DNA of 64,000 nt from Picochlorum sp. SENEW3 (taxonomy: Eukaryota). The stretch is taken from positions 310,001 to 374,000 of the forward strand of contig CP120457.1 of the NCBI GenBank assembly GCA_034226945.1. The letters are read 5' to 3'. Both the position numbers and the translations under genes were made by a program. The notes under the pieces were generated by a model. It had not been told where the DNA came from and made no database searches. It worked only from the letters and a program-made list of their open reading frames with translations. Position 1 is the first letter of the stretch; each line of letters begins with the position of its first letter. Shown here one piece after another: positions 9,561-64,000 of the stretch.

Positions 9561-10622
9561 ATGGCCACCGTATCAAGTCGCATGGCGTGTCGATGCAAGG
9601 GGAATCGAGTAGAGGTAGTAGGTCACTCGTTGCAACGAGGCAGCTCGAGGCGGAATGGAATGTTTTCTTTTTATAGAAAGGACCGACAGCATGGTTACAG
9701 GTGCCATGTGGCAGTGGCGGAGGGGTCTACAGGGGAAACATCGCGGTTGGAATGCTACAGTGAGGTGTGGAGGGCTCCAAAGCCGAGTCGGATGATTGCT
9801 GATGGGAGGGCATTTGAAGAAGAGCATCGAGTGCGTGGGTATGAAGTTGGGCCGAATCGTAGGACAACAATGATTACAATTGCGAATTTACTGCAAGAGG
9901 TGGCGTCGAATCACGTCGTGTCAATGTGGGGCAGGAGTGATGAAGGGTTTGCAACTGACCCAGAGATGGCAAAGGAGGGATTGATTTTTGTGATGACTCG
10001 CATGCAGATACAGATGGATTCGTATCCGGCGTGGGGGGATATTGTTCATTTTGAGACGTGGTTCAAGGAATCTGGGAGGATGAGGGCGCAGCGAGATTGG
10101 GTGGTGAGGAATTCTGACGGGGTTGAGATTGGACGGGCGACGAGCACATGGGTCACGATTAGTATGAAGACGAGACGGTTGGTGAAACTTCCGGATCGAA
10201 TTAGAGAGCGGTTTTCACGGTTTCAGTTACCCGATGGGGAGGATGCACTGTCGGAGGACAGATCCAGGCTCAAACTCCCTGATTTGGTGTCTGATGAGGA
10301 GGTGAACGTGCTGCCTCAGATTGCCCGCATGTCTGATATGGATATGAATGGGCATATCAATAATGTCACGTATATTGGGTGGGTATTGGAGACTGTCCCT
10401 GAAGAGTTGCAGAATGAAAGGCAGTTGTATCAGGTTGAGATTGATTACAAGAATGAATGTACCAGTGGTGACGTTGTCCATCCTCTTGCAGAGGAAAGTG
10501 ACACCCCGGATGTCTTCAGAGATGTGGATACTGTGACGTATGTTCACAGCTTGACACGACAGACTGATGCTGGCTCCAAACCAACAGAGTTGGTACGAGC
10601 AAGAACCATGTGGAGAGTGTGA
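9561..10622 (+). CDS. FATA: Plastid acyl-ACP thioesterase (FatA/FAT1-type)
   Basis: Transit-peptide-like N-terminus, then VRGYEVG, IANLLQEVASNH, YPAWGD, RATSTWV, DMDMNGHINNVTYIGWVLE and IDYKNEC. Confidence 0.93.
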   Translation: MATVSSRMACRCKGNRVEVVGHSLQRGSSRRNGMFSFYRKDRQHGYRCHVAVAEGSTGETSRLECYSEVWRAPKPSRMIADGRAFEEEHRVRGYEVGPNRRTTMITIANLLQEVASNHVVSMWGRSDEGFATDPEMAKEGLIFVMTRMQIQMDSYPAWGDIVHFETWFKESGRMRAQRDWVVRNSDGVEIGRATSTWVTISMKTRRLVKLPDRIRERFSRFQLPDGEDALSEDRSRLKLPDLVSDEEVNVLPQIARMSDMDMNGHINNVTYIGWVLETVPEELQNERQLYQVEIDYKNECTSGDVVHPLAEESDTPDVFRDVDTVTYVHSLTRQTDAGSKPTELVRARTMWRV

Positions 10623-13936: not shown

Positions 13937-15290
13937 ATGCGCGCGTCTACTCACAGAATACTAAGGAGGCCAAGGCTTCTACATGTCATTATTCTCTTTG
14001 CGGTCTTGGCACAGCATGCTGCAGGAAAATCTAATCATAATACGGCCACAACACATACTTCGGATGTCTTCATTAAAGGACGAGAGTCAACCTTGGGGGG
14101 AATGTGCGTGGAGAGCACCATGTCTGACCAAGACACTCTTCGGACACTTCGAAGACAGTCTGTCAAATTCAACCAGAAGAAGAGGTAGGGGGTGAAAACA
14201 TAGCATGACTTTACTTGTTGATTTGATTTGAGTTCTGATTCCTGATAGAGATCAGATACGTGCTACTCATTATTTATGGTTGATTCATCATTCATGTGTT
14301 GTCATGGTGCAGCATGTACCGAGATGGGGACATCATTGCAGTGTACACCCTGGACAGGCCTGGGCATGGCAGTCTTGCTGGGTGTGCGGATGCGTGCCTT
14401 TTGAACTGGAGACTGACAGACGACGAGACCCAAACACTGGACACAGACTGCTCAGCAGATGGAAACAGCCATTGTCCCATGACGACAGGGTTGATTGTTG
14501 CTGACAGAAAATGCGAGGCCTTCATGTTCAATCGGCTGACTGGTGTGTGTACTTTGCTTTCTGGGGAGGGATCGATGCGGCTTACTGGTAGCAGCAACTT
14601 TTGGTCTGGCAAGCTGATTTGCGACGACATGGGCAGTGTGGACGACTGGGCACAAGGGGTGGTTGGTAGGCGCAGCCCTCCTCCTCCTCCACCACCAAGT
14701 CCACCACCTCCTCCACCACCACCGCCACCAAGTCCACTCCTGACAACATCTGGCTCGTTGAGAGGAGATGCAACATATGTGAGTGAGAATACTGTGCAAT
14801 TGACAAGAGATGTTACATTGCTACAAGGATTAGTATATTGGGAGGGTGTTTTGGGCTACTCTTGGGAGGCATCGTTTGAGTTCAAGGCAGGACCCAAGAC
14901 AACAGACGGGGCTGACGCAGTATGGTTCTTTGCATACCGAGAGACGAATAATTTGCACGATGAAGGCCATGCTACCACGGGATATAATTTCGTTGCCGAT
15001 GAATATCAAAATGAGTACCAATTATTTGCTCCAGGGTTGTCAACTGTTGTCCCACCTCCTAATGGAATAAAACTGGGCGATGATACATGGAGAACTATGG
15101 AAATAACCTTTTCAAGCGATGGCACTACTGATACGATCACCATGACTGTTGACGGGTCTCAGGTTATCACTCAATTACATGATGCAGATATTCCTTTAAA
15201 GTATCTACAGCCAACTTACTATGGTTTGGGAGGACAGGTGGACTGTCAAACAATCATTACGCCAGAAACTTCCAGATAGTCAGAACATGA
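13937..15290 (+). CDS. Secreted PAN/Apple + Pro-rich linker + L-type lectin-like protein, copy 1. Intron 14185-14312. Apparent 4-nt frameshift near 15232
   Basis: Signal-like N-terminus, intron AG|GTAGGG...TGCAG|C, Cys pattern C..AC...CEAFMFN...CTL, SPPPP tract, and lectin-like motifs QLT/GADA/WRTMEI. Relative to copy 2 the homologous frame ends at TGA 15288-15290. Confidence 0.7.
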
Positions 15291-17076
15291 CCTTGCCTTG
15301 TCCAGTCTTTTCTATCAATAAATCGACATTTGAGTATGCAAATTAAAGACACGTGAGTCAGAACAGAGAATAGTGGCCATCAGAGCGATAGGTATATCAT
15401 ATTGAAGCTTTTGTTTGCATCATATGATGAGACATGCATGTCTTGTCAACACCATTGATTGCTCGCTGAAGCGTATTGTCATCTCTCACACCATTTCTAT
15501 GCAGCGACCGCTACAAGTAACAACTATTTGCACTCCTGAAGATCCTTATTCATATGTATGCTCTTTTCATGGAGATTGAGGAGATCTCTCGACCAAGATG
15601 TGCTCTAGAGGAAGCTCCTGCATAAGAGTTTTCCTTCAGACTCACTCTGATTGCTCTCATCCGTAGATTGATAGGTTTAAAATGGGTTTCTCTATGCCTT
15701 GAATAAACTACTAGACTATATATTTGAGCCTTTTGTCTGCACATTTTTCCTCATAGACGAGAATGAAGAGTCACAGGGAGTAGGCTGGGTACTGCTCTGG
15801 CGTTGTGTTCACCGCCCGCCCGTGGGCAGGATTCTGCGATGGATAAATCGGGTTGAATCTTGAAGCTGAAATTCCTGGCAAACGCCGAAAATGACAATCG
15901 CCTGTGTACGGCATGGTTGATACGCCGTATGTTCAAGGAGTGACCTACTACACAAGACGATATGCCCTCTTTAGCTATGTCTTATAACTGCCGCCCGTAT
16001 CCGTATGTATACTCCAGTAGCCATTTGGCGGAGAGTTGTCATTTTTTGTACACACTTGGCGAGTTTGAGACGCGATTTCTCCCCAGGCGGGATGAGCACA
16101 AGTCCCCACTGTGGCGCGTGCATAATACAATTTGTTGGCGTAACGTAATCACAAGCAATGTCTCGAGTAGGGCATGGTACTCGATTGAATCTTGCAATAT
16201 GAGTTTGCGCCATATCTCATTATCTCAATGGAATATAAACCTCCCGAAATCTTGAAAGAGTACTATACTAATAATAATACCAATAATAATAGGTTGCTCT
16301 CGTTGTGACTTGTATGCGCGTCACTACTCTGAGGAGGACGATATGGAGGCCAAGACCTCAGCATTTGTTTGTTCCCGTTCTCTTCACGTTCTTGGCACAG
16401 CATGCTGCAGGAAAATCTAATCATAATACGGCCACAACACATACTTCGGATGTCTTCATTAAAGGACGAGAGTCAACCTTGGGGGGATCGTGCGTGGAGA
16501 GCACCATGTCTGACCAAGACACTCTTCGGACACTTCGAAGACAGTCTGTCAAATTCAACCAGAAGAAGAGGTAGGGGATGAAAACATAGCATGACTTTAC
16601 TTGTTGACTTGATTTGAGTTCTGATTCCTGATAGACATCAGATACGTGCTACTCATTATTTATGGTTGATTCATCATTCATGTGTTGTCATGGTGCAGCA
16701 TGTACCGAGATGGGGACATCATTGCAGTGTACACCCTGGACAGGCCTGGGCATGGCAGTCTTGCTGGGTGTGCGGATGCGTGCCTTTTGAACTGGAGACT
16801 GACAGACGACGAGACCCAAGCACTGGACACAGACTGCTCAGCAGATGGAAACAGTCATTGTCCCATGACGACAGGGTTGATTGTTGCCGATAGAAAATGC
16901 GAGGCCTTCATGTTCAATCGCCTGACTGGTGTGTGTACTTTGCTGTCAGGGGAGGGATCGATGCGGCTTACTGGTAGCAGCAACTTTTGGTCTGGCAAGC
17001 TGATTTGCGACGACATGGGCAGTGTGGACGACTGGGCACAAGGGGTGGTTAGTAGGCGCAGCCCTCCTCCTCCTCC
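14004..17076 (+). repeat. Direct repeat of about 690 bp (14004-~14690 vs 16390-~17076), including the intron; part of the tandem gene duplication
   Basis: Near-identical sequence at constant offset 2386 with only scattered substitutions. Confidence 0.95.
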
Positions 17077-17671
17077 ACCACCGCCACCAAGTCCTCTATT
17101 GACAACGTCTGGGACGTTGTACAAGAATGCCACGTATATTGATGATAATACAGTGCAGTTGACCCAAGATGTTAAGGCAGTGCAAGGTTTAGTGTACTGG
17201 GAGGGTGTTTTGGGCTACTCTTGGGAGGCATCGTTTCAGTTCAAGGCAAATGGATCTCAATTTTACAACGGGGCTGATGCATTATGGTTTTTCGCGTACC
17301 GAGAAACAATAGAGGGTACACCACTTGAAGTGTCTGCCAACACAGGCTACAACTTTGCTGCCATTGAATTTGGCACCGATAGGTACCAATTATTTGCTCG
17401 CGACCTTCCTACGACGAGAACCGATGCGGGAGTCAAACTGGATAATGATACATGGAGGACCATGGAAATAACCTTTTCAAGCGATGGCACTACTGATACG
17501 ATCACCATGACTGTTGACGGGTCTCAGGTAATCACTCAATCACATGTGGCAAACCCTGCTTTGAAGTATCTACAGCCAACCTACTATGGTTTGGGAGGAC
17601 GAACAGGTGGAGTTTCAAACAATCATTACGTCAGAAACTTTGACATATCCAGGACATCTGACCCTGCCTAG
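16314..17671 (+). CDS. Secreted PAN/Apple + Pro-rich linker + L-type lectin-like protein, copy 2 (intact). Intron 16571-16698
   Basis: Same architecture as copy 1 at offset 2386. Complete lectin-like C-terminus YYGLGGRTGGVSNNHYVRNFDI. Confidence 0.75.
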
Positions 17672-24802: not shown

Positions 24803-27800
24803 TTATCCTGTGCGCTTGAGAAGGTACTCTAGAGCGAGTGCCAGTTTCTCAGCAACATGTTGTCGTCCTTGTCTGCTCATGAGGCATTCTGTATGGCGTT
24901 CATCCACTGTCAGCGATAATGGTCCCTTTGGATCGTCAACGTATGGTGTGGACGCATCGAGGAGGGACTTTCCGACCCTGTCTTTTGGAACGATGATGGC
25001 TGTTGGGCCTTCGTATGTGTCTGTTCCTACATGTGGTTGGATGCCCATGCGTTTTAGTGAAGCTGCTCTGTCCAATGTGGCATACACGGCTGTTTCCCAT
25101 GCAGCGACGGGAACGCTCGGATCTGAAGGTTTGAATGAGGTGATAAACTTCAACTGCTGCGTTGGTGATCCAGCTCCTTGCACGAAATCAACGAATTCTC
25201 CGATACTTGATTGGAGAGATCCAATTTCTTTGAGGAGGTAGAACAGACCATACCATGTCGTATCATGGAGCGGAATATTTGGTGGACTAATGCATCCATC
25301 CAGCAATATCAATCCTGTTTGCTTTCCAGAATTGTGAAGATAGCGTGCCATTGCCTGCGCAATCACACATCCAGTGACGCTGGTTCCTGCCAAGAGATAT
25401 GGACCAGATGGCTGCATCTCAATCATAGCTGCGCAGTATGAAGCTGCCAGTTCTTCTGTATCGGTGCACTCTTCTGCATCTGGTCCCAAAGCAAGACCAT
25501 AACATGGAACTCTGAGCATGGCTGCGAGCTCTTTCTGAGCTCCACTAATGTCACCTCGCTCAGAATGCGTCATCCACAAGGGGATTCGTGCAAGTGGGGC
25601 AGACGCCATTTGTGCTGGGGTGCCCGTTTTTCCAATATGACGCAGAATATACCTTCTCTCTGGACATAATCTATTCAATGGAGAAACAACGCAGACTGTG
25701 CTGAGTGATCCAATATCCTCATCCATGCTATCTGGCTGTGGTGATACATCATGCATTCGTGGTGACATCAATGGAAGTGCGCTTACGCCTGTAGCTCTTT
25801 GCTCGGCATCTTTACGCCTCCAAATGGCCTCAAGTATGTGGCGGGTCAATGTTGATGCTGCATGGTGATCTTTTCGGTTCAAATAGTGGAATGTGACTGG
25901 TTGTACAAGGAACCTGATTGGTTCCCAGACATTATTTGGCCCATTGATGATGTGCGCTGCGTCTTCGTGGTCCATTTCTGATATCTGTGAGATGACTTCA
26001 GAAGATGAGAATACCAGGGATTGTCCAGGGAAGATATCCACTGGAGAGTAGCTATCTGACACTGTCTTGTAGTATCCCAATCTCGATAAGGTGACATCAA
26101 CCTTGACGTCCCATTCAGCTACTGAAAGATTTTCGGGCCTGAATGAAGCCAAGTAATCAAGCTGCTCATCGAATGCAGGCGTTTCTGCGAGACGTATCAC
26201 AATCTCATCCAAAGGTGGAGCCTTTGGACCCATGGTCTCCAAAATCAAGGGATACAGCGCAACTGCTGCTTGGCATGTGTCCACAGCTGCCTCCTCAGAG
26301 AGTAGTTGGGACACTTGCGTATTGTCCTTGATCGTGTATAATCCTTCAAATAATGCCAGTGTACAGACATTGTCGTTGAGGCCATCCAGGTGAAGCGCAA
26401 GCTCATGTGCAAGCAGTCCGCCAAAGCCAACACCGCCAACAACAACAGGCTTGTTCATCGGGATTGTCCTCTGGAGTGCTTTCATTGCAACTGTGGCAAG
26501 TTCGTTCAGGTCGGGAGCTTCCCAGAGAAGGTTGTCTTGAGGCAGGTGAACAGCGAATGCCGGAATGTTGACATTGCTGAATATAGTCTCAAGCCCACCC
26601 AAGGTTCCATTTGCTTCACAGCACACAATCAGGAGAGCCTCGACATCGCCTGGGCCTGTCTGCTCTTGCCACGCCTTTCCAACTCTATTAATTGCAAATA
26701 TCTGATCTTTTGAAGATCCGGTGAATGCACTGCCAACGCCTTCTTCGGTTGCATATGGCATGGCAACCTCCAGTCTTCGTCTGAGACCAGGATCATCCAC
26801 TCCCATCTTCTTCAGATAAGAATCAATGTCTCTAATCTCATTGGCTGAAACGGAGTATTGCGGTTTGTCTTCTCTACTGATTGTTTCAGACCAACCAAAC
26901 GGTCCCAGGACCGTTTTCAGGCCCGTAACAAGAATATTCATGTCTTCCAAGTCTTGTCTCAACAATGAGAAATGGTCTCCAGGCACATCAATGACCCTGA
27001 GATCCAAGCACCTTTCATACCAACAGGCGCCGTGGGGATACGGCACGTTTGGTCCCTTCCGATCATCAAAGTATGTACAGACACCTGGAACGAATGCTCT
27101 GAAGTATACAACAGGAGACAACAGGTGGTGATTCGAGAACTCATGACCTCTGAGGTCAGAAATCTGTGATCCCTGCTTTGTTACTAAAGCCACATATTCA
27201 ATTTGCTCCTTTACCTCTTCAACACTCATGTTGGAGTCTCTCATGACACGCCAAATGGGTGCAAAGAACTCATACTTTTGATCCATTGTCATGCCTTTCC
27301 ACTCATCTGATTCCTTTGGATGGGCGATGGAGGATCCCATGCCCAGAGCGTCCCTTCCAAGGGCACCCAAGATCATCTCCATGAGCTCTAAGCAATCCTC
27401 ATCAGTCGCTTCAGTTGCTTCAGGTTTCTGCTCTCTAATTTGTGATTTCAATGGAGTATCCATGATCAGTACTAGTCCGACCTCTTTTCCCCAACTTTCC
27501 AGCACCATTGCAATCTCCACAGCAACTGCTCCTCCATATGAATGTCCTCCAACCAAATAAGGCCCTTCAGGCTGAATCAAAACCATGTCCTCGGCATTCT
27601 GAAGTGCTAATGCTTTCAGGTCCAAGTCATTGTCTTTGTCAAGCACGTAAATTGGTTGTGTACTCCATTGCAGGAACATGGAGAAGGCGAAATAAGCGGA
27701 TTGTGCATTGGCAACACCTGGTGCAGCCAGGAACAGCGGCCTGGCCTGAGCTGGTGGGCGCAATGTCTTCATAAGTTTTGACACTTGGGGCTGTGGTGCT

Positions 27801-30800
27801 CGCACATCCCTTCGTCCCTTTGCGACATATGCTTCCTCCGAATCCTCATCTGTACCAGGTGACAATGCTTTTTCTTCTGAACTTGTGACCACCCCACTAA
27901 TGTATCCGACAATATCCTCAATTGACTGGTAGTCATACAGAAGCGTCACTGGAAGCTCCAATCCTAAAGATTCAGCAAGGATTCTTCTCAGCTCCATACC
28001 TCCTCTAGAGTCCAGTCCTGCTGTCATTAAAGGCTCTTCTGGATGAATGGCGTGGCCAACAACCTGCTTAACTTCATTCATCACTTGGGATTGTATGTGA
28101 ATCAAACGTTCCTCTTCTGTCATCAACAGCAGAGGATGATCTGCTGGGATTTGATCAATCTCATCCTCCTCGTTCTCTGCAGCTCGAGGTGTCTGCGCTG
28201 AGAGAGGTCCAGGTGATGTAGGAGGCAGATCATGTTCACCGACTATCAGGTTCTTCAGCGTAACAGCACTGTCAGATCCTAAAGCTCTTGCATTCGTGAC
28301 TGCCCAGGAATCTTCCTCAGAGAGATCCATTGATATGCTTTCCATACGCTCGTGAGATCCCAGATTGAATGAGATATGCTCGATTGTCCTGACCCATGTC
28401 AGTGGCGATTGGAGAGGTGCCATGTGACTCGCAGTGAGGGCGACCACAGCTTCAACAACGCATGAATCAACATGATTGTCCATTGACCTCGAATTATAGT
28501 GCAGAGAAGAGACAGAAGACGCTTGTCCCCTTTGAAGCAGTCCAGATAGGAGTGCTGATGGCTTGTGCAGTTTTGGAGCACCAGCCGATTGTCCAGATGG
28601 TACTGACATCCTTGCCGCCATCACTTTTTGTAAGGAGTGGGTCACCTCCAAATGACCGGTCAAAGGCTTGATGAGAATTGACACTGTACTCTCATCTGCA
28701 GTCATTCTCTTACTGGGCCGAGGTAATGGTAGAGGAGCTGGGAACGTCGCTGCTGCCACTCCACTAGCAATCAATGAAGAATCTGAGACAAGCATTTCCA
28801 CCCCTGCCATGGTGCATGTCAACAGTGTAGAAGATAACAGATGTGATCTTCCGTAAATCTGGTTGCATAGATACTCGACATTCTTCGAGGAATTGATTTG
28901 ACTTTCGAAAGTCACTGATCCAGTATTATTCTTTGATCGTCGCCTTACCCAGGCAACATCAAGCAGTTTTGCCACCCTTGGAACGACCCACATTCTCTGG
29001 CACTCCCAATTAACCACGTCGCAATTAGGAGAGATCACGGTTATCCCTCCTATTCCTTTAATAACTGCATGTGCGTTTGTTCCCTGTGCGCCAAATGAAC
29101 TGACTCCCAAGATAGCCTCACCACTTGAGACATCTGATGGAGTACCTATCTTGCTACTCCTTGCTATCAAGACTTTACTGTCTCTGATTGCGCCATATAC
29201 GTGTGGATTCAAGTGACGCAAATGAAGGGCTGGAGCCATGCAATTTCGCGTTGCAACTTGCATTGCTTCACACAGACCGACTGCACCAGCAGCTGACTCC
29301 TGGTGCCCTGTGTATCCTTTGACTGTTGCAAGCATGAATGGCAAATACCTATGACGAGATAACGCTACCGCAGAAATAGCCCCTATTTCGATTGGATCTC
29401 CAAGACTAGTACCGTTAGAATGTAATTGAATTCCGTTGACATCCTCTGGTCTCATAGAGCTGGCATACCAAGCCTCTCTCAACAATTGTTGCTGTGCTGG
29501 ACCATTAGGAGCTGTCAAAGAGCTAGCTCTTCCATTCGTATTGACTGAGCTCCCGCTAATTACCGCGATAACATCTTCTATATCTTTTTGAGGATAGTTG
29601 GGACCGAGAATCAGCGTTCTTACTGCTTCTCCTCTGGCGTACCCATCAGCAGAGGCATCCAGAGTCTTGGAGCGCCCTTCTGGAGAGATCATCTGTGCCC
29701 TTGTTAACATGAGGGTAGATTCAGGGACTAAGCAGAGCAAGACTCCAGCAGAAATAGCAGATTCCATTCGAGATTCCCTAAATGCTGAACAAGCCATATG
29801 TGTGGCGACCAGAGATGCAGAACATGCTGTATCAACGCTCACCGCAGGGCCCTTGGCAGCAAACACATATGCCAGCCGCCCGCTTGAGACGCTTGGGGAG
29901 GCAGATGTGAAGCTAAATGCATTGATTGGCTGCCCGTTTCGATGACTCAAAGATTCATAGTCAGTCGCCGCAATTCCAACAAAGGCACCTGCCTGCTTTC
30001 CAAATACAATCTCAATGCCACCTGCTGAAGTCAGAGCAGATAATGTTTGCATCAATAAAAGTCTCTGCTGTGGGTCCATGCCAACAGCTTCTGATCTCAT
30101 AAGGCCAAATAATTCTGCATCGAATAACTCGACATCTGGAACGAACACACCAAATTGAGATGGAATATTTCCCTCCCCATCAACGAGGAGAGGGGAATTG
30201 ACATCCCATCTCTCAATAGGTACTCTGATCGATGCATCTCCTTGCACCCAATCCTGCAGAATCTCTGTTTGCCCAGACACTCCGAATACATTGATATCGG
30301 ATCCTGAGAAGTTTGCATTGGCTACCAAAGCATCTTCTGCATCGCCAATCGGCCCACCGTCGCCACTCAATGCCTGGCTCAAAAATTCACTCATTGCGTC
30401 AATTGTGGGGTAGTCAAACACAAGTGTCGAGGGCAATTCAATCGAAAGCTCATCTTGAAGCTTTTGCTGCAATTCGGTTGCTCCTAAAGAATCAATTCCA
30501 GCTTCCATTAGAGGCTCGTCAGGCTTTACAGACTCGCCAACAATGGATTCAATTGCCTCTGTGACAATCAAACGAACAGTGTCCGGGTCAATTCCTGCCT
30601 GGACTGGCTTAGAAGCCTCCAAAACTCTATAATCTTGATCGAACACGGATGATGAGTAGTCCTGGGCACTCGGGCTGAGTATGAGAGGCGTGTATGGACT
30701 TCTTGGTGTCAATGCAGTTGAGCCTGGATCGGCCTTTGGTCTTTCAGTCAGCAGCCTTCTTGTCTCGACCTCACTGAGTGAAACTTTGCAAACGCCGCCT

Positions 30801-33800
30801 GCATTCACGGACTGCTCCACGTATCGTTCATCTTTGCTGAGAACACTTGAGGTCCATGCATCACTCAAACTGGTTTCAAGAGGAGAGGTCTCAATCATGC
30901 CAATTTTGGCAGCAACGCGGATAGTAGAATGGCTGAAATTATGCGCTGTGCACACAGTTCCAGACGATTCTGAAATTGCTGGGTGCATTCTGAATCCATT
31001 AGAATCGACTGCCGTTGTTGACACACATGCCAGATTGGATTTGATCTTTGTTCCCTTTTCCATCACCGCACCAATGGTTGAGGACGTGCCTGGCTGATTC
31101 TGCATAGGCTTCTCTTCAATGCTCGCTGCAGATGCATAGAAATGCACTCTGTTTGAATGCGACAAAATCTCCATGGAACTTGTCGAGACATTGATCATCA
31201 AAATTAAGTTCACGCTCTGTAAAGCCTTCTCAATAAATATTGGTGCAGAGAACAAACCATCTTGCAGATACACACTTGATTTCTGGTTGAGAAGTGAAGA
31301 TACTCCAGACGCTGAGCATTCAATCATTGATGAGGCCGATACAATGCAGCGCCCTTGGATCACGTGATCAAACATGAAACTTCCTCTTGACGAGACGAGA
31401 GTACAATTGAACATTGCTTGCTTTCCTCGCCTAGTTTTAAAGACAGATGCTGTGTGAAGAAGTGTGCTAGGGAGTGGTGCCACCCAGATCCTACCATTCT
31501 TCCAAGGAAGGTCCCTCTTGGCCGCAATAGGGCCTGTATAGTTTGCCTTTCTAACAATGGCATGAGCATTGGTTCCTTGGAATGCAAAAGAGCTGATTCC
31601 AGTGTACAATCTGGAACCTTCAGCCATCCCACTGGCACACCTTGGAGCAAGCCAAAATTGCTGCTTTGTCTTCATGGCCTGCATTTCCATCACCGTTTCG
31701 ATGTGACTATTTAGTTTGGATAAATGCGAGATTCCTTGGACAAATACTGCAGAAGCCGCTATACTGGCGTGCACTAATCCAGTTGCTCCAGCTGCTGCCT
31801 CTGTATGACCAATCCAGGCCTTTGCAGTGCTGGCAGAGACAAAGCTACGCCTAGATGAATGATCCACCAGCACAGCATTGGCTGCACCAAGTTCAATTGG
31901 ATCGCCAAGAGGTGTACCAGTTCCATGCATTTGAAGGTTTGAGATCTCTCCAGGGAGAGTCTCGCTGAATCTTAGGCATGCCCTCATCACCTCAGACTGA
32001 CTTGGCCCATTGGGTGCTGTTAGAGAGGCAGAGCTTCCATCCTGGTTGACTGCTGTACCTACCAAGACAGCTACTGCTTCTAACGAAGCATTTGAATCAC
32101 TGACCGCATAGTACAAGACTGCTGCAGATTCACCTCTCACGTATCCGTCGGCAGCACTATCTAGAGTCTTACACCTTCCGTCAGCTGACAGCATTCCTGC
32201 CTTTTGGAACATTGCTGTGGAATCTGGATTCAGTAAGAGTCCGATACCAGCCGTCAAAGCCGCGGATGAGCTTCCTGACCAGATCGCGTTCGCTGCAACA
32301 TGAGATCCGACCAAGGATGAGGAACAAGCTGTATCTACACTCATTGCCTGCCCTTTGAACCCAAACGTGTATGAGATTCTACCACTAGCAACACTCAATG
32401 CACCACCTGTCGCACTGTAGGCACTCACTCCGCTGGTATGCCTTGCGACAACGTAATTATTGTACTCAGCGCTCGCAATTCCGACGGATACAGCCACATT
32501 TGACTGAGCACTGTAGCCTCTAGATTGAGAATCTGAGATGACTTCTTTCGATAGCTGCAAAATAATCCTTTGTTGGGCATCAATCAGGAGAGCTTCTGTG
32601 GAGGAGAAACCAAATGCCTCAATATCAAACTCATCGATATTCGACAAGTATCCACCGAACCGTGCAGGTGAGTAGTCCTTGGAAAGATACTCAACATCCC
32701 ATCTCTCCACCGGAATTGTGGTAATGGCATCGATTGTATTTATGCATGATATTGACATCGGCGTCTTGAATGCCGCAGACATCAAATGCAGTGGTGTATT
32801 GGATGATTTAAGATTGAGTTCCAGTGTTGGCTCAATATCTTTAACTTCCTCTATGTCAGGGATTGAATCTGGAAGCTGAGTCTCAAGGAATGAAACCAAC
32901 GCAGATGGTGTAGGATAGTCAAATACGAGAGTTCCTGGTAGCTGTAGACCCATACGAGACTCCAATGCATTCTTCAATTCAACTGCACCAAGAGAATCTA
33001 GACCAGCATTCATCAGAGATTCATCCATTCCAACAGTTGCTCCTGTGATGGATTGAATGGCATCTAGAACTTCAGTCTGGATTGCTTCCGTGGATTTAAT
33101 CACACTTGTTTGAATACCGGCAGCTTTGCCACTTGAAGATTCTAGCTTCTTTTGAACAAAATTCTTAAAGAACACTGGTGGGCTAGATCCCAGTCGCTTC
33201 ATCATCTTCTCCCAAATGAAGAGATTTGCTGAAGTAACCGGTTCGTTTGCTCTACAAGACACCACACTCTCCAAGACTCGCAGGCCTAAGTTCGGATCAA
33301 GCAGTCCCATACCAGTTCTTTCAACCCTGATTTGCGTAGAGGAATCATTTGCAGCCATACCAGAACCAGCCCAAGCGCCCCACTGGATGCTCTGAGAAGT
33401 CAAGCCACTTGCCTGGAGATGGGCTGACATTGCGTCAATGACTGCGTTTGCAGCACTGTAGTTTGTCTGCCCAGGAGAGCCAAGCAAGGCAGCCACAGAT
33501 GAAAACATAATTTGGAACGAAGTTGGGTGCTCCGTGGAGAACCTATTGATCAGGTTGACGCTCTCAACCTTCGCTCCGAACACCTGGGCAACTGACTTAA
33601 TTGTCTGGGAACCAATGGTGCCATCCCTGAGTACTCCTCCAGCATGAACAATACCCAGAAGTTTACTGCAGTATATCTTCGAGGTATCTGCCCTAGTGGA
33701 TGTGTCACAGGATGTTGAGGTGCACATAGATCCAAAGATACTGTCAGATACACAAGAAAAGTCAATTGGCGAGCCGGTGGTAGGTCGCCCAGTTCTGCCA

Positions 33801-36800
33801 AGCAAGACAATATTCAGCATATTTTGACTGGCAGCCCAATTTGCCACTTGGAACCCAAGTGTACCCATTCCACCAGTGATGACAATAGCATTTTCTGTTC
33901 CTGTATCCTCACGTTGGGACATATGAGAAGCACTGACAACGATCTTTCCAACATGCCTTGCCTGAGACATTTGTCTCAGCGCTGACGACACATTGCTCAT
34001 GCTATGTGATACGAATGGAAGAGGTTTCAGATAACCTTCAGCAGCCCCTGCAGAAACAGACATCAAAGCAGAATGCAGTGCATCCTCCGGCATAAAGTCA
34101 ACTGCCAGAAGAGAATATTGAATATCTGGCCTTTCCTGCGATGATCTGCTGGAGCTCCAAATATCTCGCTTGCTGATTTCAACAAATCTTCCACCCATAT
34201 CTATAGCTGCCAGGGACGCAGCCACCATGCCACTTGAAGTCAAGCTGTTAAGCACAACATTAACTGGTCCACAGAGCATCACATCAGATGCAAATATTGT
34301 ATCTCGAGATCCTAGTGCATCTGAAACTCCTAGGCTACGTACCAAGAAACGCTTGTTTGAGCTTCCGGCAGTAGCAACTGTCCTTGCACCTTTGGATGTG
34401 GCCATTTGAATAGCAGCAAGTCCTACACCCCCTGCAGCTGCATGCATCAATAGAGTCTCTCCTTTTTGAATTGAAGCGATCTTATTCAGGGCTGTATCCA
34501 CAGTTATGAAGACAGTTGGCATTGTAGCAGCTTCTTGGAAAGTGATTCCTTCTGGGATGGGGACCAATGTCTTTTCAGATGCTAAAACATGGCTTCCTAA
34601 GCTTCCAGCTGCCAAACCAAATACCCGTTGCCCAATCGTAAGAATGGATCCATCAGGAGAAACTCTTGTAACAACTCCTGAACAGTCACCGCCAGGATCT
34701 CCAGGATCCCCAGGGTACATGCCCAGAACGTTGAGGACGTCTCTAAAGTTGATTCCAACAGATTGTACCTGTATCTCAACCTTACCAACACCGACTGCAT
34801 CAATTTCCACAGGTTCTGGAACTAGATTACCAAATGCACCTCTTGGTCGAGGCATGAGGTGGTACGCAGGAGGCTTTTGGCGCTGAGTGCTCTCCAACAG
34901 TACAGCTAGATCTGCAGCATTGCCGCTGACAAGGCTTCCATATCCATCAGAGACAGAAGGTTCAGATAGAATGGAAATCTCTGTACCATGTTGCTTTTTC
35001 ATGTTGATATCCGTAAGATAGCCAGTATTTGTCAAGCCTGGCATCTCAGCTGCAAGGGATCGAATCATACCCCAATCTCCCTGAGCTTGTTCTCCAAACT
35101 TGTTATTGCCATGTGTAGAATTGACAGAAACTGCCAACTCCTCTCTGGTGGCAATACATTTCAGAGCTGAAAGCATGTTACCAGCATGCTGCGTTGCATG
35201 ATCCTGATATTTTACCGAGATGAGATTGCCTTGTATCTCAACCCCATGGTGAACATGGTCAACTTGTCTCTGTACAGTGTACGTGATATTTTCATTCACA
35301 ACTCTTCTGGAAACCTGTCGGCCAGAGGATGTCATAGGCTTTGCAAGGAGACCTTGAAGATGCATTATATCCGCACCATCGCTTGTCTGCAGCCGATGAT
35401 CGCGGAGCGTGCCTCCCAGATGCTCACTTGATCTTGCCTTTGACTGGGCCATGATCTGCTCCCTGCTGTGGACTGAATCCACGACAACGAAAGCATCTAT
35501 GGCAGCAGGCACAAATGTCTCATCTTTAGAAACTCCATCCTCTTCGATCACCGCGCCAAGTTGGAATGTATTGTCCAGCACGCTTGGGTGAATTTTGTAT
35601 CCTGTTGTGATATTCGTAGCATCTCCTACCACAATCTGTGAACAGGCATCTGTTCTATTTCCATGGATATTGCGCATTCTCCTAAATGCAGGTCCATACT
35701 GAAGACCTGCTGAGTTCATTTCACTGTATATGTGTCCAGAATCTCTTGGTAGACTGCACTGTGCCCTGACTACTTCCATTGATTTCCTTGAACCAGTTTC
35801 AAGATTCCTGCGGCCATTTCTGTCAATCTGTACTGCTTGATTAAAATGTGCACTCAAGTGACTGATCTCGTTGGACTTACTACGAGATATAATATTAATC
35901 TTGAAGTCATCTAGGCTCAATTGAAGAACGAGGGACACGCCTCCTGGACTGTCAGATGCTATCACTAGTGGTGCACTGATGGATGCATTGGCAACACAAG
36001 CAACAGGCGAAGGTAGCTTCGCCAAAGATGAATTAGACGCCACCGCAAGCTCGAGATATGCTGCTCCTGGCAAAATGGCTGAACCATTAATTTGGTGGTC
36101 CCTCATGTCAGCCAAACAAGGAGAATCAAGCTGACAAGAGAGTTCCACTGAACGACCCATTTTAACACTCTGGAGCAGGAATGGGTGGTAACTCGTTAAA
36201 ACTTCAACATGGGATCTCAAAGTAGAGTGCCATTCAAACTGGTGATCTGTTTCAAATCCATCTAGGCTAGAAATGATGGCATGAGCGTTCACTCCACTCA
36301 TGCCGAATGAACTTGTACCAGAGAATGTTGCATCACTTGGAGAGCTCTGAATCGGCAACCGATGTGCCTTATTCCACCCAGTAAACGAATTCTTGACATA
36401 TTCGTTCATGTTTCTGTAGCGCAGGGGATGTGCATACTGATATGCCAGTTGGACTCTGCAAAGCATGAGGCCTGCCAGTCCGGCTGTTCCTTCCAGGTGT
36501 CCTGTCAAAGTCTTAGATGCCCCAACCGTGAAGGATTCGTTGGATTTGCTGGAGGAAATCGCTTTCCTGAGGGCTCCAGTCTCTATTGGATCACCCAATG
36601 GGGTACCTGTGCCATGCGATGCAACATAGCCCAAATTGTGAACATGTGCCTGTTGCATGGATTGAATGATCAGGTTTTGCTGAGATGGTCCGTGAGGCGC
36701 AGTCAAACCAGCGCTTCGGCCATCTTGGTTCACAGAAGATCCTGCGACTCTAGCCAAAGCATCAGATTTGCACTGATCCAAACGCTGAAGCACAAGAGAA

Positions 36801-39800
36801 ACAAAACCTTCTCCTCTACCATAACCGTCTGCTTCAGCTCCAAATGCTTTACATCTTCCATCTGGTGACAAGGCATGGACTTGGGTCATTGCAGAGCTCG
36901 CTGCTCTGGGGAGAAGCATGGCATTTACTCCTGATGGTGTCGCTTGCAAACAGTCTTCTAAAGCAATGCCTCTTGAAGCTAGATGATAAGCCACGAGGGA
37001 CGAAGAGCAGGCTGTGTTCGTCGGGACACATGGTCCGACCAGACCAAATGTGTACGAGATTCTTCCTGACATAAATGCCAGGCCATTTCCAGTTACCATG
37101 TGTGCTCCTGTGGGAATATTCAACGAAGACAGCAAATCGCCGTACTCAAGCCATATGCAACCAACATAAACGCCAGTTGAACTGCCAGAGAGATTTCGAG
37201 AAGATAAATTTGCAGACTGGAAGGCATTTTGAGTTTCTTCAAGAAGAATACGCTGCTGCGGATCCATTAGCGAAGCTTCACCCACTGGGAGGCCAAACAT
37301 TTGCTCATCAAATTTGAAGAGCGATTCCACATAGGTTCCTATGCGTGTGGACACTCTTCCTGCTCCACCACTTGGATGATACCAAATTTCACTATCCCAT
37401 CTGGATAGCGGGCTTGGCTGATGAAGCTCTGTGCATCCATCAAATGCCTCATGCAGTTCTTTTTCGGAAGTTATTCTCCCAGCAAATCGCATCGACATAC
37501 CACTGATGACAATGTCACCGTGTACTGGTGAGATGAATTCTGGTTCTGCAGCCAGAATCTCCATTGTACTCTCTTGTCCACCTAATGCATCCATAATATA
37601 TTCCGCTATGGCTTCCTGGGTGGGATAGTCAAATGTCAATGTTGATGGCAGCTCCAAGCCAAATTCTTTGCCTAATGCATTCCTGAGCTCTACTGCACCA
37701 AGAGAGTCTAAACCAGCCTCCATCAGAGAGGCAGATGCAGGAACAGAAGTACCAATGACAGCAGCAGTCAAATCAGAAATCTTGCTCATGATCGTATCTT
37801 TATTGATCGAGGGATTCGCTGACTTTCTCGGTGCAGTGTCCACATGCGCAACTTCTGAGCTTTCCTTCAAGGTGGCTTCAAGGTAGTCCACAATGGCCTC
37901 TTGCGTCGGATAATCAAAGGTTAATGTGGCCGGCAACTCTAAGCCAAACTCTTTGCCCAATGAATTCCTGAGCTCCACTGCGCCGAGAGAGTCTAATCCA
38001 GCTTCCATCAGTGAGGCAGATGCAGGGACAGAGGTGCCGATGACTGCAGTGGTGACAGTGGCAACCTTGCTCATAATCGCATCCTTGCTCACCAAGTTTG
38101 ATGGTTGTGGCACCACCGAGGAAGCCCCCCGAGAGGCGCGTAAATTTCGTGCTTCTTGTGGCGTAAAGTTCTCAAACAAGGTTGTTCGAGATCTGAGGCG
38201 CTTGGTGAAGATCGACCAATCGAATGGATTGGCACCTATTATTGGCTTGCTGAATGTAGAGACCACACCTTCCAATACTCTCAACCCTTGGTCTGGCTGG
38301 ACCATTCCCATTCCCATTCTCTTGACTCGCAATTCAGTCTCTTTCGAAGCCATTCCACCGCTTGACCAAGCTCCCCATTGGATACTTACTGCTCTACAGC
38401 CCAATGATTGAAGATTGCTTGCTAATGTGTCCAGGGCAGCATTTGCTCCACTGTAGTTGAGCTGCCCAGGGGCACCCAGGAGAGATGCCACCGAAGAAAA
38501 CATGACTTGATTGCGCAAAGGAAGCTGTGGTGCAACACCTAGTAATTCCTGTGCTGGAATCAATTTGGATCCATATACTGTTCTGAAGCCTCCAAGGGAC
38601 TGCCGACTGATGGTTGCATCTGCAAGTACACCTGCTGCATGAAGCAGCATTGAATGTGGTACTTTGTCTTCTAATGAGAATTCAGTCTCTAATACATTGC
38701 GAAGATCTTCTGTGAGACCCATATCACTCTTGACGATATGAATCTCCACGGTATGATCTTCAGGCATATTGGTAGCACTGAATGCTCCTGTTCTACCAAT
38801 CAGTGTCACTGTTTCAGCTCCTCTTCGAACTGCCCAGCTAGTCGCTATCTGGCCAAGGCTGCCAGTGCCTCCTGTGATTAAAGTATTTCGAATTTGAGTA
38901 TTCAAGTCGACATTTTGATTTTCGACCACGATCTTGCCTACATGTCTCGCCTGAGACATCTGCCGCAGAGCTGCACCAACATGTGTTAGATGGTGGCATG
39001 CCAAAGGCAATGGCTTCAGATCATTCCTTGCGACACCTTCGGCGACCCTGAGCAATGACTTATGCAGGGCATCTTCAGACATGAAGTCAACTGCCACAAG
39101 CGAATAGGAAATATCTGGTCTTTCCTGCAGAATTCTCTGCGCGGGCCAGATATCGCGTTTGCTGATTTCAACCACTCGAGCCCCTAAGTTAGACAATGAC
39201 AAGGTTGCTGCAACAAAGCCTGCTGATGTGAGAGTGTTCAGGGCAATGTCAACAGAGCCAACGCTCTCCATAAATGTTTCAACGAATGATAAATCCCTTG
39301 ATGTAGCCGTATGTCCTACCCCAAGGGTTCGCAATAGATTGCGCTTGCTGGGATTTCCAGCAGTAGCCACTATTGTGGCACCAGCTGCCTTCACTACTTG
39401 CAGTGCAGCCAAACCAACTCCTCCAGCTGCTGCATGGATCAGAACTTTATCATTCGATGCAATCGATGCTGCCCTATGCAAAACTGCATCTACTGTAACA
39501 AATACAGTTGGCATAGTCGCTGCAGATGCAAAGGAAACATTATCTGGTTTGGGGACCAGTGTCTTACTTGAGGCCAACACATGGCTACCCAAGCTGCCAG
39601 CAGCCAGGCCAAACACGTGCTGACCAACTTTCAGATTAGATCCAGCAGGGGATTCTATGATGGTTCCAGCGCAGTCACCTCCTGGAGGGCCAGGATCTCC
39701 TGGATACATCCCGAGAACATTGAGGACATCTCTGAAATTAATGCCGACAGCATGAACTTGGAGAAGAACCTCCCCACTTCTGGGATTCAAGGATTCGAGT

Positions 39801-42800
39801 GCAAATGGCTTCAAATTCTTCAAGCTTCCTCTAGGATCCGGAATAAGTTGGTATGGTCCTTGGATACGATTTAACGTAGCTGTGGCCATCGATGGGGTAA
39901 AATCAACCTTTGAGTAGGAGGAAACTCCATAGCCATCAAATGGCACCTGCTCTGAGCTTTCCTGTGACACCGCTACCAGTGCACATGCGCGATGAGATGT
40001 CTCAATCGGGTCGGTTCTGTGACAAGACACATTTGATACCACAGATTCTTGTGCAAATGTCCTCAGCATTCCAAAGAGCTGTCCCCCTTCGTTGGAGGCT
40101 GCTGGCTTTGGCACAACATGCCCATCATGCACCACAGTGTCAAGTGAAACTCCATTAATCAAATGGGCGTGCTGCAAGATATTTGCCACAGAACTCGAAT
40201 TTTCGACAGTATCATGAGTGTCGACAAATTTGAAAGTCGAGTTGAGGCTCTTAGCCTTGTTAGTCAAAGTAGATGCAGTGGATGCACACCAATCAATTGA
40301 GTATGCCATGTCCTCCTCCACTGTCTTTCTTGTCCTGGAAGCAGCCGAGCTAATCTTGCGAGATTCCAAACAGTTTAGACTACAAATCTCGTTGCCCTCT
40401 GAATCAACCAAAAGCAAATCCCTTGAGATGGTGGTGGTAGACTCTTCCATGCCAGCAGATTTCTTTGCGAGGCCAATAACAGTGATCTCAGTGATTCTGT
40501 CTTTTACGCTCATGGCCTTCAAGGAGGCAGGAATCATTGTTTCCTTAGCTCTGGTTGTCTGTATCAATCCTCCAAGTTGTAAAGTGCAGTCAAGCACAGC
40601 AGGATTCAAGATACATTCTGTCTTATTGTGGCTTTGGTCTTGACGCAACTTTGCTGCAGCTGATTCCTTTCCAGCCTTGACCGATCTCATTAGTCTGAAG
40701 TGTTCACCGTACTCTAAACCGGCACTTGAAAACTTGGAGTAGATGTAATTGGTCGCAATTGGTTCGCATGTTTTCACCATCATCAATTCAGGTGAGGTGA
40801 TTGCTTTGTTCTCGGCGTCTTGGACAAGAGCCCGAGAAACCTGGCCTGCAATATGCTTCGAGGGTGATTGGATACTCATCGTCCCATCTGATAATTCAAT
40901 GACTATCTTGGCATACAGCCTTCTGGAGTGTTCCATGTTCATTAGGAGAGGTGAGGCAAAAACAATGCTGTTGAAGACACTTCCAGGAAGTGCTCCAAGT
41001 ACAGAAACAGCCTCTGCCATAATTTCCATGTAACCGGCTCCAGGGAACACGGAATTGCCCGAAACTACGTGAGACCTGATGTGAGCATGCAACGGTCGGG
41101 ATAAATTTACCTCAAATGACACTTTGCCACCAGTGCATTCTGTCTTTGTCAGGAAAGGCATAGCAACAGGCAATACTGACACGTGTACCATTTCCCAAGG
41201 AACATACAGGTCGCTAACCTCCATCGTTTGTACTCCACCCCGAACAATAGCATGCGCATTTGTACCTTGGAATGCAAATGAACTAATTCCTGCATAGCAT
41301 CCCGTGAGTGATGATTTCGGGTTTCCTGCTGCGATTCTTGGCAGAGCAAACTTCAAGGAGTTTTGTGATAGTGATGCTCTGGCATAGGAATTAGCTTCTG
41401 TCAGGTGCATTATCGGTTGCAGTGCCATGAAATTTGAGGCCGTGTATGCATGAAGGACTCCCAGTAATCCTGCTGATGGTTCTGTATGACCAAATGATGT
41501 CTTTCCTGCCATTAATGACAGGTTTTCATTGTTTCCACTATGGACTGCTGATATAGCTCCGACCTCAATAGGGTCTCCGAGAGGAGTGCCAGTACCGTGC
41601 ATCTGTATAAATGATATCTCTTTGGCGAGTACATTACCAGCCATCAATGCATCTTTCATCACAGTCTGTTGAGCTGGACCATTTGGTGCAGTCAATGCAC
41701 TGGACTTGCCGTCTTGGTTGACTCCAGTGCCGATAATATGGCATTCACATCCCTCTCTCTCTTCCGAGATCTGCTCAACAATGAGAGTTATGCCAGCTTC
41801 TCCTCTTACGTAGCCATTTGCGCCATCATCAAGCGTCTTACACCTGCCATCTGCTGCCAACATACCGGCTCTGTTGAACATTGCCGATGTCTCTGGAGTA
41901 AGTATCAGCTTAATGCCAGAAACAATGCTAGAGTGGTATGGCGAATTCTGCATGGACGAGCATGCCATGTGCATTCCTACCATAGAGGAAGAGCAGGCAG
42001 TGTCAATGCTGACTGCAGGCCCATTAAGATTGTACAAGAAGGCTAATCGACCAGATGCAACACTAAGTGCACTTCCAGTGGCACTATATGTACTGATACT
42101 ACTGTAGACTTTTGCAATATCTGCGAAATCTGGTGTAGAAATACCTACATAGGTCCCTACATTAGAGCCTTTCCAAGCATTTTTTGATCTCAACTGCGAT
42201 ATCGCTTCTTCTACCATTTGAAGAATGAGCCTTTGTTGAGGATCCGTCAACGCAGCTTCTGAAATTGAAGTACCAAAGACCTGGTGATCGAACATGAAGA
42301 CATTCTGCAAGAAAGCTCCAAACCTCACGGACAAATCCTCCGTCAAATGGATCTCCGAGTCCCATCTTGATGTTGGTATCATTGATATATTGTCCTGGTA
42401 GTCTATGATGCCATCTGTGCCTGGCAAACGGCATGCGGAGCTGGTTACCCCAAGTGAAACCTTGGTGAAATTGTTCAGTTGCTGGCTAAATTCTTCCTGT
42501 ATCTCCAGCGTCTCCTCGGGGCGAAGCACACTATCGATATACCCAGAGATTGATGATATTGTAGGATAATCGAACACGAGCGTCGACGGAAGTTCCATTC
42601 CCAAGCGAGACTCCAAGCCATTTCTCAATTCAACTGCCCCCAAAGAATCAAGACCAGCTGCCATGAGCGGTTCTTCAGGACCAACTTCACCACCGATTAT
42701 AGACCATGCAACCTCCTCAACCTCTGCCTGAATTTTCTGCGCATCAATGGCTATTGTCGGACGCGAAATGGAGGCATTAGTCACCCCCAACATGCTATCA

Positions 42801-63800: not shown

Positions 63801-64000
63801 CATGGCAGTGGTACTTGGTGTGAGTAACATGTTCACACCACCACTCAATGCGTTTGTACACTGCCCAAGATTGATACTGTTCGCAGATGTATGCAGAGCG
63901 ACAAGTGAAGAAGAGCAAGCAGTTTCTACTGGCACTGCAGGACCTTGGAATCCAAATGTGAAGGACACTCTCCCAGCTGCAACACTTATTGATAGTGTTC
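24803..64000 (-). CDS. Giant AT-less modular type I polyketide synthase, 5'-truncated by the window, at least about 13,040 aa. Visible order: KS-DH-KR-ACP-ACP-ACP0 / KS-DH-ER-KR-ACP-ACP / KS-DH-ER-KR-ACP / KS-DH0-KR-ACP / KS-DH-ER-KR-ACP / KS-DH-ER-KR-ACP-ACP / KS-DH-ER-KR-ACP / KS-DH*-ACP / KS*-DH0-ACP / TE-TE0-TE*
   Basis: Nine xTACSxS KS motifs (~63915, 59720, 54640, 50085, 46610, 41995, 37010, 32325, 29820), seven TGGxGxxG/YSxAN KRs, five ERs with (G/A)AAGGVGLA, and twelve G(L/M/I)DS ACPs. No AT GHSxG/HAFH/YASH motif seen. The frame stays open to base 63998. Confidence 0.95.
55221..55754 (-). repeat. Tandem near-identical ACP-coding repeat, about 195 bp (55221-55415 and 55560-55754)
   Basis: Offset 339. 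Both copies encode [59 protein letters not shown]. Confidence 0.93.
56366..56435 (-). other. 70-nt phase-0 spliceosomal intron joining the 2525-aa and 10508-aa PKS ORFs inside a KR domain
   Basis: Minus strand reads ...CCA GTA ATG|GTATGT...TCGCAG|GGA TTA ATT CAT TCT GGA GGC GTT CTG TCT GAC. Splicing restores the KR motif SKPVM-GLIHSGGVLSDAMATNQ. Confidence 0.93.

Follow-up and report, generated by a model that had tools for sequence, protein, structure and literature searches.

Introduction

Assembly lines in which more than one thioesterase (TE) is fused past the last carrier domain have been described in bacterial nonribosomal peptide synthetases (NRPSs). In LybB, the lysobactin synthetase, cyclisation falls to the first TE and hydrolysis or proof-reading to the second, and in the teixobactin synthetase Txo2 the two TEs are redundant, according to the accessible sections of PMC10510592. 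For enduracidin, the accessible part of PMC13320435 describes a 'tri-TE architecture', with three thioesterases per assembly line and a proposed division of labour. Here we analyse the C-terminus of a giant polyketide synthase (PKS) encoded within a 64,000-nt stretch of the Picochlorum sp. SENEW3 genome (GenBank assembly GCA_034226945.1, contig CP120457.1, positions 310,001 to 374,000 of the forward strand). This whole stretch is referred to below as the window, and all nucleotide coordinates are counted from its first letter. The C-terminal 984 residues of a 10,508-aa PKS open reading frame (ORF), past its final ACP, comprise three TE domains, which we call TE1, TE2 and TE3.

In having more than one TE fused past its last carrier domain, the Picochlorum synthase is like LybB and Txo2 as presented in the available text of PMC10510592. 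Unlike those bacterial NRPSs, which have two TEs that keep their serine, it is a eukaryotic PKS without acyltransferase (AT) domains and with three TE folds, and its middle TE is a pseudo-enzyme with an invariant glycine at the nucleophile elbow, flanked by TEs of different lineages. With the enduracidin system it shares the number of thioesterases per assembly line and a proposed division of labour, but there the set belongs to a bacterial NRPS cluster and consists of one integrated type I TE and two free-standing type II TEs, each of the latter with a gene of its own, with no pseudo-enzyme mentioned in the accessible part of that source (PMC13320435). All three TE domains of the Picochlorum protein share one uninterrupted frame with the PKS, so that none of them is the discrete protein that a type II TE is expected to be.

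Among algae, the chlorophyte trans-AT megasynthase is described in the accessible text of O'Neill 2020 (PMC7073580) as conserved, with an N-terminal adenylation domain, 10-11 modules and a hydroxy-pyrone as the proposed product. The Picochlorum synthase is like the PKS1-type of this chlorophyte family (C. reinhardtii PKS1) in that it lacks AT domains, has highly reducing modules and, at the end, two modules that carry no reducing domain, terminates in a TE and occurs in a green alga, and we infer that it belongs to this PKS1-type of green-algal megasynthase. The comparison is one of descriptions: the figure legend of PMC7073580 lists a TE and unassigned '?' domains, and the accessible text describes neither three TEs nor a serine-less TE. 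The same text mentions two TEs of unclear role in a haptophyte PKS, and the algal PKS catalogue of Shelest et al. 2015 (PMC4661987) names the TE, within its accessible part, only in a legend. A fused TE-pseudoTE-TE ending of a PKS, or a serine-less TE of an algal PKS, is not described in the searchable text of the literature, the figures of which may draw one undiscussed. Judged by that searchable text, the arrangement TE1-ψTE2-TE3 (ψ marking the pseudo-thioesterase) is a previously undescribed form of tandem-TE termination.

The sole genetic evidence on giant green-algal PKSs comes from C. reinhardtii PKS1, which is linked to the resistant zygospore wall in the accessible parts of PMC9832785 and of the PKZILLA preprint; the latter gives its product as unknown. 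Salt-responsive PKS transcripts are reported for Picochlorum renovo in the available text of PMC6811619.

Results

Three thioesterase-fold domains end the synthase

The 10,508-aa ORF occupies positions 24803..56329 of the minus strand in an uninterrupted frame, with its stop codon at 24803-24805. Reading towards the C-terminus, and all on the minus strand, TE1 covers aa 9527-9812 (26894..27751), the TE1-TE2 connector L12 aa 9813-9896 (26642..26893), TE2 aa 9897-10180 (25790..26641), the TE2-TE3 connector L23 aa 10181-10244 (25598..25789) and TE3 aa 10245-10508 (24806..25597). The initial annotation, made from the sequence of the window, had proposed that three tandem TE-fold domains end this PKS, and had quoted short motifs for each. 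We recovered all of these motifs in the C-terminus of the ORF, 1-4 nt from where they had been placed: GPYLVGGHSYGG (aa 9589-9600, nt 27530-27565) and DVPGDHFSLL (aa 9781-9790, nt 26960-26989) in TE1, PVVVGGVGFGG (aa 9961-9971, nt 26417-26449) in TE2, and GPYLLAGTSVTG (aa 10309-10320, nt 25370-25405) and VDERHTECL (aa 10475-10483, nt 24881-24907) in TE3, all on the minus strand.

Each TE segment was scanned separately against the Pfam family PF00975 (Thioesterase), for which the gathering score is 26.4 bits. TE1 (59.4 bits, E 7.7e-16) and TE3 (35.8 bits, E 1.3e-8) score above this value, and TE2 (24.8 bits, E 3e-5) falls slightly below it and is thus borderline by Pfam alone. A scan of the whole C-terminal piece yields three PF00975 stretches and 107.8 bits. 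The fold assignment of TE1 rests on Pfam and on sequence matches to the PDB; for TE2 and TE3 we built AlphaFold2 models from alignments of their natural homologues. The TE2 model (aa 9880-10200) has a predicted local distance difference test score (pLDDT) of 88.6 and a predicted template modelling score (pTM) of 0.87, and the TE3 model (aa 10225-10508) reaches 91.2 and 0.89, respectively, its opening 20 residues, which are part of L23, being of low confidence (pLDDT 48). Both models show the strand-helix core of an alpha/beta-hydrolase with a helical lid.

When these models were compared with the PDB using Foldseek, the top matches were TE domains throughout: 4zxh (1.5e-7), the human fatty acid synthase (FAS) TE, RedJ and the Pks13 TE for TE2, and 4zxh (6.4e-13), 7crn and the human FAS TE for TE3. 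Pairwise structural alignment with VIA-align gave for TE2 a Z score of 17.9 with the oocydin branching TE 7r0x, a PKS TE (244 aligned residues, root-mean-square deviation (rmsd) 3.7), 16.4 with the human FAS TE and 16.0 with the Pks13 TE. The corresponding scores for TE3 are 21.6 with the human FAS TE 3tjm (242 aligned, rmsd 5.1), 21.5 with 4zxh (249 aligned, rmsd 3.3) and 19.2 with the Pks13 TE. The human FAS TE (2px6, 3tjm) and the TE of Mycobacterium tuberculosis Pks13 (5v3w) are the best solved relatives of TE3 and also good matches of TE2. They differ from the Picochlorum domains in that identity is 14-22%, that each is a single terminal domain, that TE2 is without the serine and the histidine, and that TE3 has threonine, not glycine, two residues after the serine. 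All three domains are TE-type alpha/beta-hydrolases, with similarity beyond chance, as the initial annotation had proposed.

No Pfam family matches L12 (aa 9816-9879) or L23 (aa 10181-10224). Both connectors are 70% identical to those of a homologue, P0183, and phmmer detects L12 in other homologues as well (for example P0002 at 7.7e-29 and P0003 at 8e-17). These matches indicate that L12 is conserved in its own right.

Catalytic residues of the three domains

TE1 has a complete and canonical triad, consisting of Ser9597 in GHSYG, Asp9624 at Ser+27, and His9786 in PGDHF. In TE2 the elbow reads G9966-V-G9968-F-G9970, and Gly9968 sits where the nucleophile would be, between the strand at residues 83-88 and the helix at residues 91-106 of the model. 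The acid position, after the next strand, is occupied by Glu9995 where Asp would be expected. We considered His10148 (in FHYL) as the catalytic histidine of TE2 and rejected it, because the model places it within a beta-strand and homologues do not conserve it. The triad of TE3 is again complete (Ser10317, Asp10344 and His10479), with the same Ser+27 spacing of the acid as in TE1. Ser10317 is located between the strand at residues 87-91 and the helix at residues 94-109 of the TE3 model, which is the strand-turn-helix geometry of a nucleophile elbow. The elbow itself is G-T-S-V-T, that is, GxSxT as against GxSxG, and homologues carry Val, Ala or Ile in place of the threonine at Ser+2.

In order to survey these positions in homologues, we used hidden Markov models for the three domain classes and assigned all TE domains in 185 retrieved proteins. 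Eight NRPS-type proteins (P0019-24, P0185, P0186) with unrelated TEs were dropped, and the sole serine recorded in the TE2 class had come from one of them. Fragments that fall short of a given column were left uncounted for that column; the counts are not all independent, because a dozen near-identical members of one cluster (P0171-P0182) are included.

Among 143 TE1 domains, the nucleophile is Ser in 77 of 77, the acid is Asp in 57 of 64 and the histidine is present in 48 of 48. The 63 TE2 domains have Gly at the nucleophile position in 49 of 49 cases, Glu (34), Asp (11) or Val (1) at the acid position in the 46 that cover it, and no conserved histidine; the glycines flanking the nucleophile position are kept in 50 of 52 and 45 of 49. 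In the 49 TE3 domains, the nucleophile is Ser in 33 of 41, Gly in 5 and Thr in 3, the acid is Asp in 41 of 43, and the histidine is kept in 39 of 39.

These counts bear out what had been read from the window with respect to TE1, whose Ser and His are intact, and to TE2, whose nucleophile is replaced by glycine. They indicate that the Ser-to-Gly exchange in TE2 is an ancient and invariant character of the family and no local loss in the Picochlorum gene. Since every homologue has glycine at the nucleophile position and no histidine is conserved, TE2 is predicted to be unable to form an acyl-enzyme. The view that only one of the three domains is clearly catalytic is not supported, as two of them, TE1 and TE3, look catalytic: TE3 holds a full triad that is largely kept in homologues, and is probably an active enzyme. 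The proteins in which the TE3 nucleophile is Gly (P0011, P0010, P0141, P0155 and P0092) keep Asp or Asn as the acid in all five cases, and the two that cover the histidine position, P0010 and P0011, keep that residue too. They may represent a second, independent conversion toward a pseudo-TE.

Distribution and origin of the TE cassette

A word-indexed search of longer proteins gave 23 matches to the cassette with E <= 1e-5 among 7,998 scored candidates, and HMMER, run exhaustively over 1.84 billion representatives, gave 2,833 matches with E <= 0.001, of which 301 have E <= 1e-10 and 70 have E <= 1e-30. Among the proteins of 5,500-17,500 aa that were searched there were four matches, two of them relevant (P0183 and P0184). 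The cassette is covered to 100% by P0183 (7,398 aa; 73% identity), P0002 (71%) and P0003 (50%). In the 13 best long matches, PF00975 is found as three stretches in six proteins, two in six and one in one.

We mapped the segments of the window protein onto all matches. The C-terminal order TE1-L12-TE2-TE3 is also present in P0002, P0003 and P0025, in the fragments P0027, P0029-32, P0037, P0040, P0045, P0061 and P0072, in four Pavlova lutheri-type proteins from a haptophyte (P0005-P0008) and in two proteins of Pedinophyceae sp. YPF-701 (P0011 and P0036). In the trebouxiophyte gene models P0004, P0009 and P0010 the cassette is partial, and the models look truncated; the partial protein P0015 of Haematococcus lacustris ends inside TE1, which is 69% identical. 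Overall, the named proteins that share the cassette come from green algae and the haptophyte Pavlova, and many metagenome proteins share it too. The conservation check to which the initial annotation had pointed thus finds segments 2 and 3 retained in homologues, and the distribution indicates that algal AT-less PKSs share the cassette as a family character, here in named green algae and Pavlova. Four proteins (P0012, P0013, P0014 and P0028) carry TE1 and a single TE2-like domain with the glycine elbow, and TE3 is undetected in them though 150-170 residues follow. Because these proteins have both domains without a detectable TE3, TE1 and the pseudo-TE look like the core pair.

Profile-profile comparison with hhalign relates TE2 most strongly to TE3 (E 1.7e-35 over 201 columns), with TE1 further from both (E 1.6e-12 to TE2 and 3.7e-15 to TE3). 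In a quick maximum-likelihood tree of 62 domains, TE1 forms a clade with support of 100 on a long branch, TE3 forms one with support of 99, and the TE2 sequences fall in between. The nearest profiles for TE3 are those of the animal FAS TE (2px6, E 2.4e-18) and of the Pks13 TE (4.3e-9), and the nearest solved relatives of TE1 are NRPS TEs and the TE of the fungal PksA (4zxh 8.4e-6, NocB 2.8e-5, 3ils 4.8e-5). Lid residues are conserved in both TE2 (Q10056, P10065, W10073, Y10094) and TE3 (Q10392, P10401, W10411, Y10439), following the pattern Q, P, W and Y-x-G/P. The comparisons indicate that TE2 and TE3 are an old pair of paralogues, of which one copy, TE2, has lost its Ser and His, and that TE1 is a separate TE lineage.

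The domains differ in how fast they change. Identity to P0183 is 95% in the last ACP, 45% in the ACP-TE1 linker, 91% in TE1, 70% in L12, 61% in TE2, 70% in L23 and 72% in TE3; for the more distant P0003 the corresponding values are 71%, 37%, 79%, 54%, 44%, 46% and 51%. Among the three domains, constraint thus appears strongest on TE1 and weakest on TE2. TE2 is nevertheless conserved above the level of the ACP-TE1 linker, and its fold is confidently predicted.

Architecture of the synthase and its surroundings

The 10,508-aa ORF is the 3' exon of a longer gene. Its Pfam scan was carried out on three pieces at E <= 0.01, and domain order was obtained by phmmer with the protein's own domain segments. 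The KR domain is divided, its first part ending the upstream exon and its remainder opening the 10,508-aa ORF, and between the two lies a 70-nt phase 0 intron with GT..AG borders (GTATGT...CGCAG; 56366..56435, minus strand), excision of which gives the spliced reading ...SSKPVM|GLIHSGGVLSDA.... The upstream exon, in which Pfam also identifies PKS domains, extends on the minus strand from 56436 to beyond 63998, within an ORF (56391..63998) that runs off the window. Because the split KR and the intron join the two PKS ORFs, the protein is longer than 13,000 aa, and its N-terminus lies beyond the window.

The Pfam families found in the ORF are KS, DH, ER, KR, ACP and Thioesterase, and no acyltransferase family matches the ORF or the upstream exon at E <= 0.01. 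Upstream of the TE cassette and its ACP, the ORF encodes seven KS-containing, AT-less modules (28097..56329, minus strand), and with two KS in the upstream exon the window holds nine, together with at least 14 ACPs. In the order recovered by phmmer, the ORF reads [KR]-ACP-ACP / KS-DH-ER-KR-ACP / KS-KR-ACP / KS-DH-ER-KR-ACP / KS-DH-ER-KR-ACP-ACP / KS-DH-ER-KR-ACP / KS-DH-like-ACP / KS-ACP-TE. The final two modules are thus KS-DH-like-ACP and KS-ACP, and neither Pfam nor phmmer finds KR or ER past aa 7654. The last ACP (aa 9412-9477; 27899..28096, minus strand), recognised by the PP-binding Pfam family, by phmmer and by the motif LDSRGG at aa 9439, feeds the TE cassette.

Some further features of the modules can be recorded. 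Tandem ACP doublets occur in three modules, at aa 191-374 and aa 6090-6245 of the ORF and at aa 1000-1148 of the upstream exon. The last KS (aa 8697-9090, ~29100..30240, minus strand) keeps its Cys and both His and has HSNGT in place of the HGTGT of the other six KS. No Pfam family matches the 322 aa that separate the last KS from the last ACP (aa 9090-9411; 28097..29062, minus strand); the start of this stretch, judged by eye only, resembles a degenerate DH N-terminus.

Picochlorum is a green alga of the trebouxiophytes and has a compact genome. The neighbours of the PKS in the window are eukaryotic and plastid-related genes, encoding a TOC159-type translocase, a P-type ATPase, a FatA/B-type acyl-ACP thioesterase, Rpc25 and EMC3; full-length identity of 100% links the TOC159-like ORF to 'Translocase of chloroplast 120' of Picochlorum sp. 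SENEW3. The plant-type acyl-ACP thioesterase, which has the FatA/B hot-dog fold (Acyl-ACP_TE domains), lies at 9561..10622 on the plus strand, about 14 kb from the 3' end of the PKS. Its nearness to the PKS is probably coincidental and a matter of plastid fatty-acid metabolism. Two ORFs of 327 and 329 aa (14296..15279 and 16682..17671, both plus strand) have weak legume-lectin-like Pfam matches (E 3.9e-4 and 1.1e-5, respectively), and may be a tandem gene pair.

Discussion

We propose that ACP-TE1-ψTE2-TE3 is the off-loading cassette of an AT-less, highly reducing modular PKS, in which TE1 would release the product, TE2 would be non-catalytic and TE3 would be auxiliary; we give this proposal about an even chance of being correct. 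Ser9597 of TE1 would accept the finished chain, probably a 3,5-dioxoacyl-ACP, from the last ACP and would then release it by hydrolysis or by lactone or pyrone formation, because the final two modules leave beta-keto groups unreduced. TE1 is the likely primary off-loading enzyme since it is canonical, evolves most slowly and adjoins the ACP. TE2 may be a structural scaffold or a chain-binding module and a constant partner of TE1, because its glycine is invariant, its acid and lid motifs are retained and it is present even in proteins without TE3. TE3 would add a further serine hydrolase or acyltransferase, of the FAS-TE/Pks13-TE type and with an auxiliary role: acting alongside TE1 or after it, it would offer another route of release or transfer or clear stalled carriers. 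Such a division of labour among the TEs would resemble the one seen with tandem TEs in some NRPSs. The chemistry that the initial annotation had suggested, in which the domains could cyclise, transacylate or oligomerise chains or scaffold product transfer, is speculative.

Several points weigh against this proposal. The roles of all three domains are inferred from sequence and structure models only. The atypical elbow of TE3, with its threonine at Ser+2, could impair catalysis, and the loss of the TE3 serine in 8 of 41 homologues (Gly in five, Thr in three) suggests that some lineages can do without TE3 catalysis. Among the three TEs, conservation is lowest in TE2, where it is no better than in the connectors L12 and L23, which fits a relaxed structural role and also slow decay.

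The alternative that fares best, which we nonetheless consider unlikely, is that TE3 is purely a proof-reading domain acting in cis, in the manner of a type II TE, which removes acyl groups that are mis-primed or stalled on the many ACPs, TE1 alone making the product and TE2 serving as a spacer. The second TE of LybB acts in this way, as described in the available text of PMC10510592. Editing would benefit a synthase of which the window alone holds at least 14 ACPs, the loss of the serine from some TE3 homologues fits an accessory, non-essential function, and type II TEs are found among the structural matches (RifR 3flb, Z 18.7, and RedJ). The best matches of TE3 are, however, integrated releasing or transferring TEs, namely the human FAS TE (E 2.4e-18, Z 21.6) and the Pks13 TE, and not type II enzymes. 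Tethered at the far C-terminus, behind another TE, TE3 would also have difficulty in reaching ACPs 10,000 residues distant, to an extent that depends on the quaternary structure.

Alternatively, TE1 may be the only functional domain, with TE2 and TE3 as non-catalytic relics of an old duplication, kept only for structural bulk or for dimerisation. This would agree with the departure of the TE3 elbow from GxSxG (Ser+2 being Thr in the window and Val or Ile in relatives), with the replacement of the TE3 serine in 8/41 homologues, and with the much faster evolution of TE2 and TE3 relative to TE1. Against it, the His, Asp and Ser of TE3 are kept in 39/39, 41/43 and 33/41 cases across sequences that are otherwise 30-70% identical, which in contrast with the unconserved histidine of TE2 argues for selection on the TE3 triad, and Ser10317 sits at the strand-turn-helix nucleophile elbow in the model. 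We regard this explanation as quite improbable.

Finally, the cassette might build esters: TE1 and TE3 would form acyl-enzymes, and the serine-less pocket of TE2 would hold a hydroxylated chain or wall acceptor and present it to one or both of them, resulting, in place of hydrolysis, in chain-chain or wall esterification (by Pks13-like transfer or oligomerisation) and in long aliphatic products that the synthase directly cross-links into resistant, algaenan-like wall polymers. TE2 keeps the lid motifs and the elbow geometry of its active paralogue, with Gly in 49/49 homologues and an acidic residue in 45/46, which suggests a preserved pocket, and the Pks13 TE, an acyltransferase, recurs among the matches of both TE2 and TE3. 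Aliphatic polymers of the Chlamydomonas zygospore wall, with their proposed PKS1 role, would fit as well, as far as the accessible part of PMC9832785 describes them. This explanation is nevertheless a very doubtful one, as no product is known for any family member in the available text of PMC7073580 and the PKZILLA preprint, and fold similarity does not tell the reaction.

For the giant green-algal PKSs, the accessible text of PMC7073580 and of the PKZILLA preprint gives no known product, and it is the termination cassette that decides whether the output is a free acid, a pyrone or lactone, or an ester. A conserved triple ending that combines two different, putatively active TE lineages with an invariant dead one suggests that release is not simple hydrolysis. 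TE2 represents a clean natural pseudo-enzyme domain, which green algae and a haptophyte have retained next to its putatively active paralogue; if the cassette were ester-forming, TE2 would be the first PKS pseudo-thioesterase to which a defined role in presenting substrate could be assigned. The cassette also amounts to an expressible fragment of about 1,100 aa, which would give a handle on the chemistry of a protein of more than 13,000 aa.

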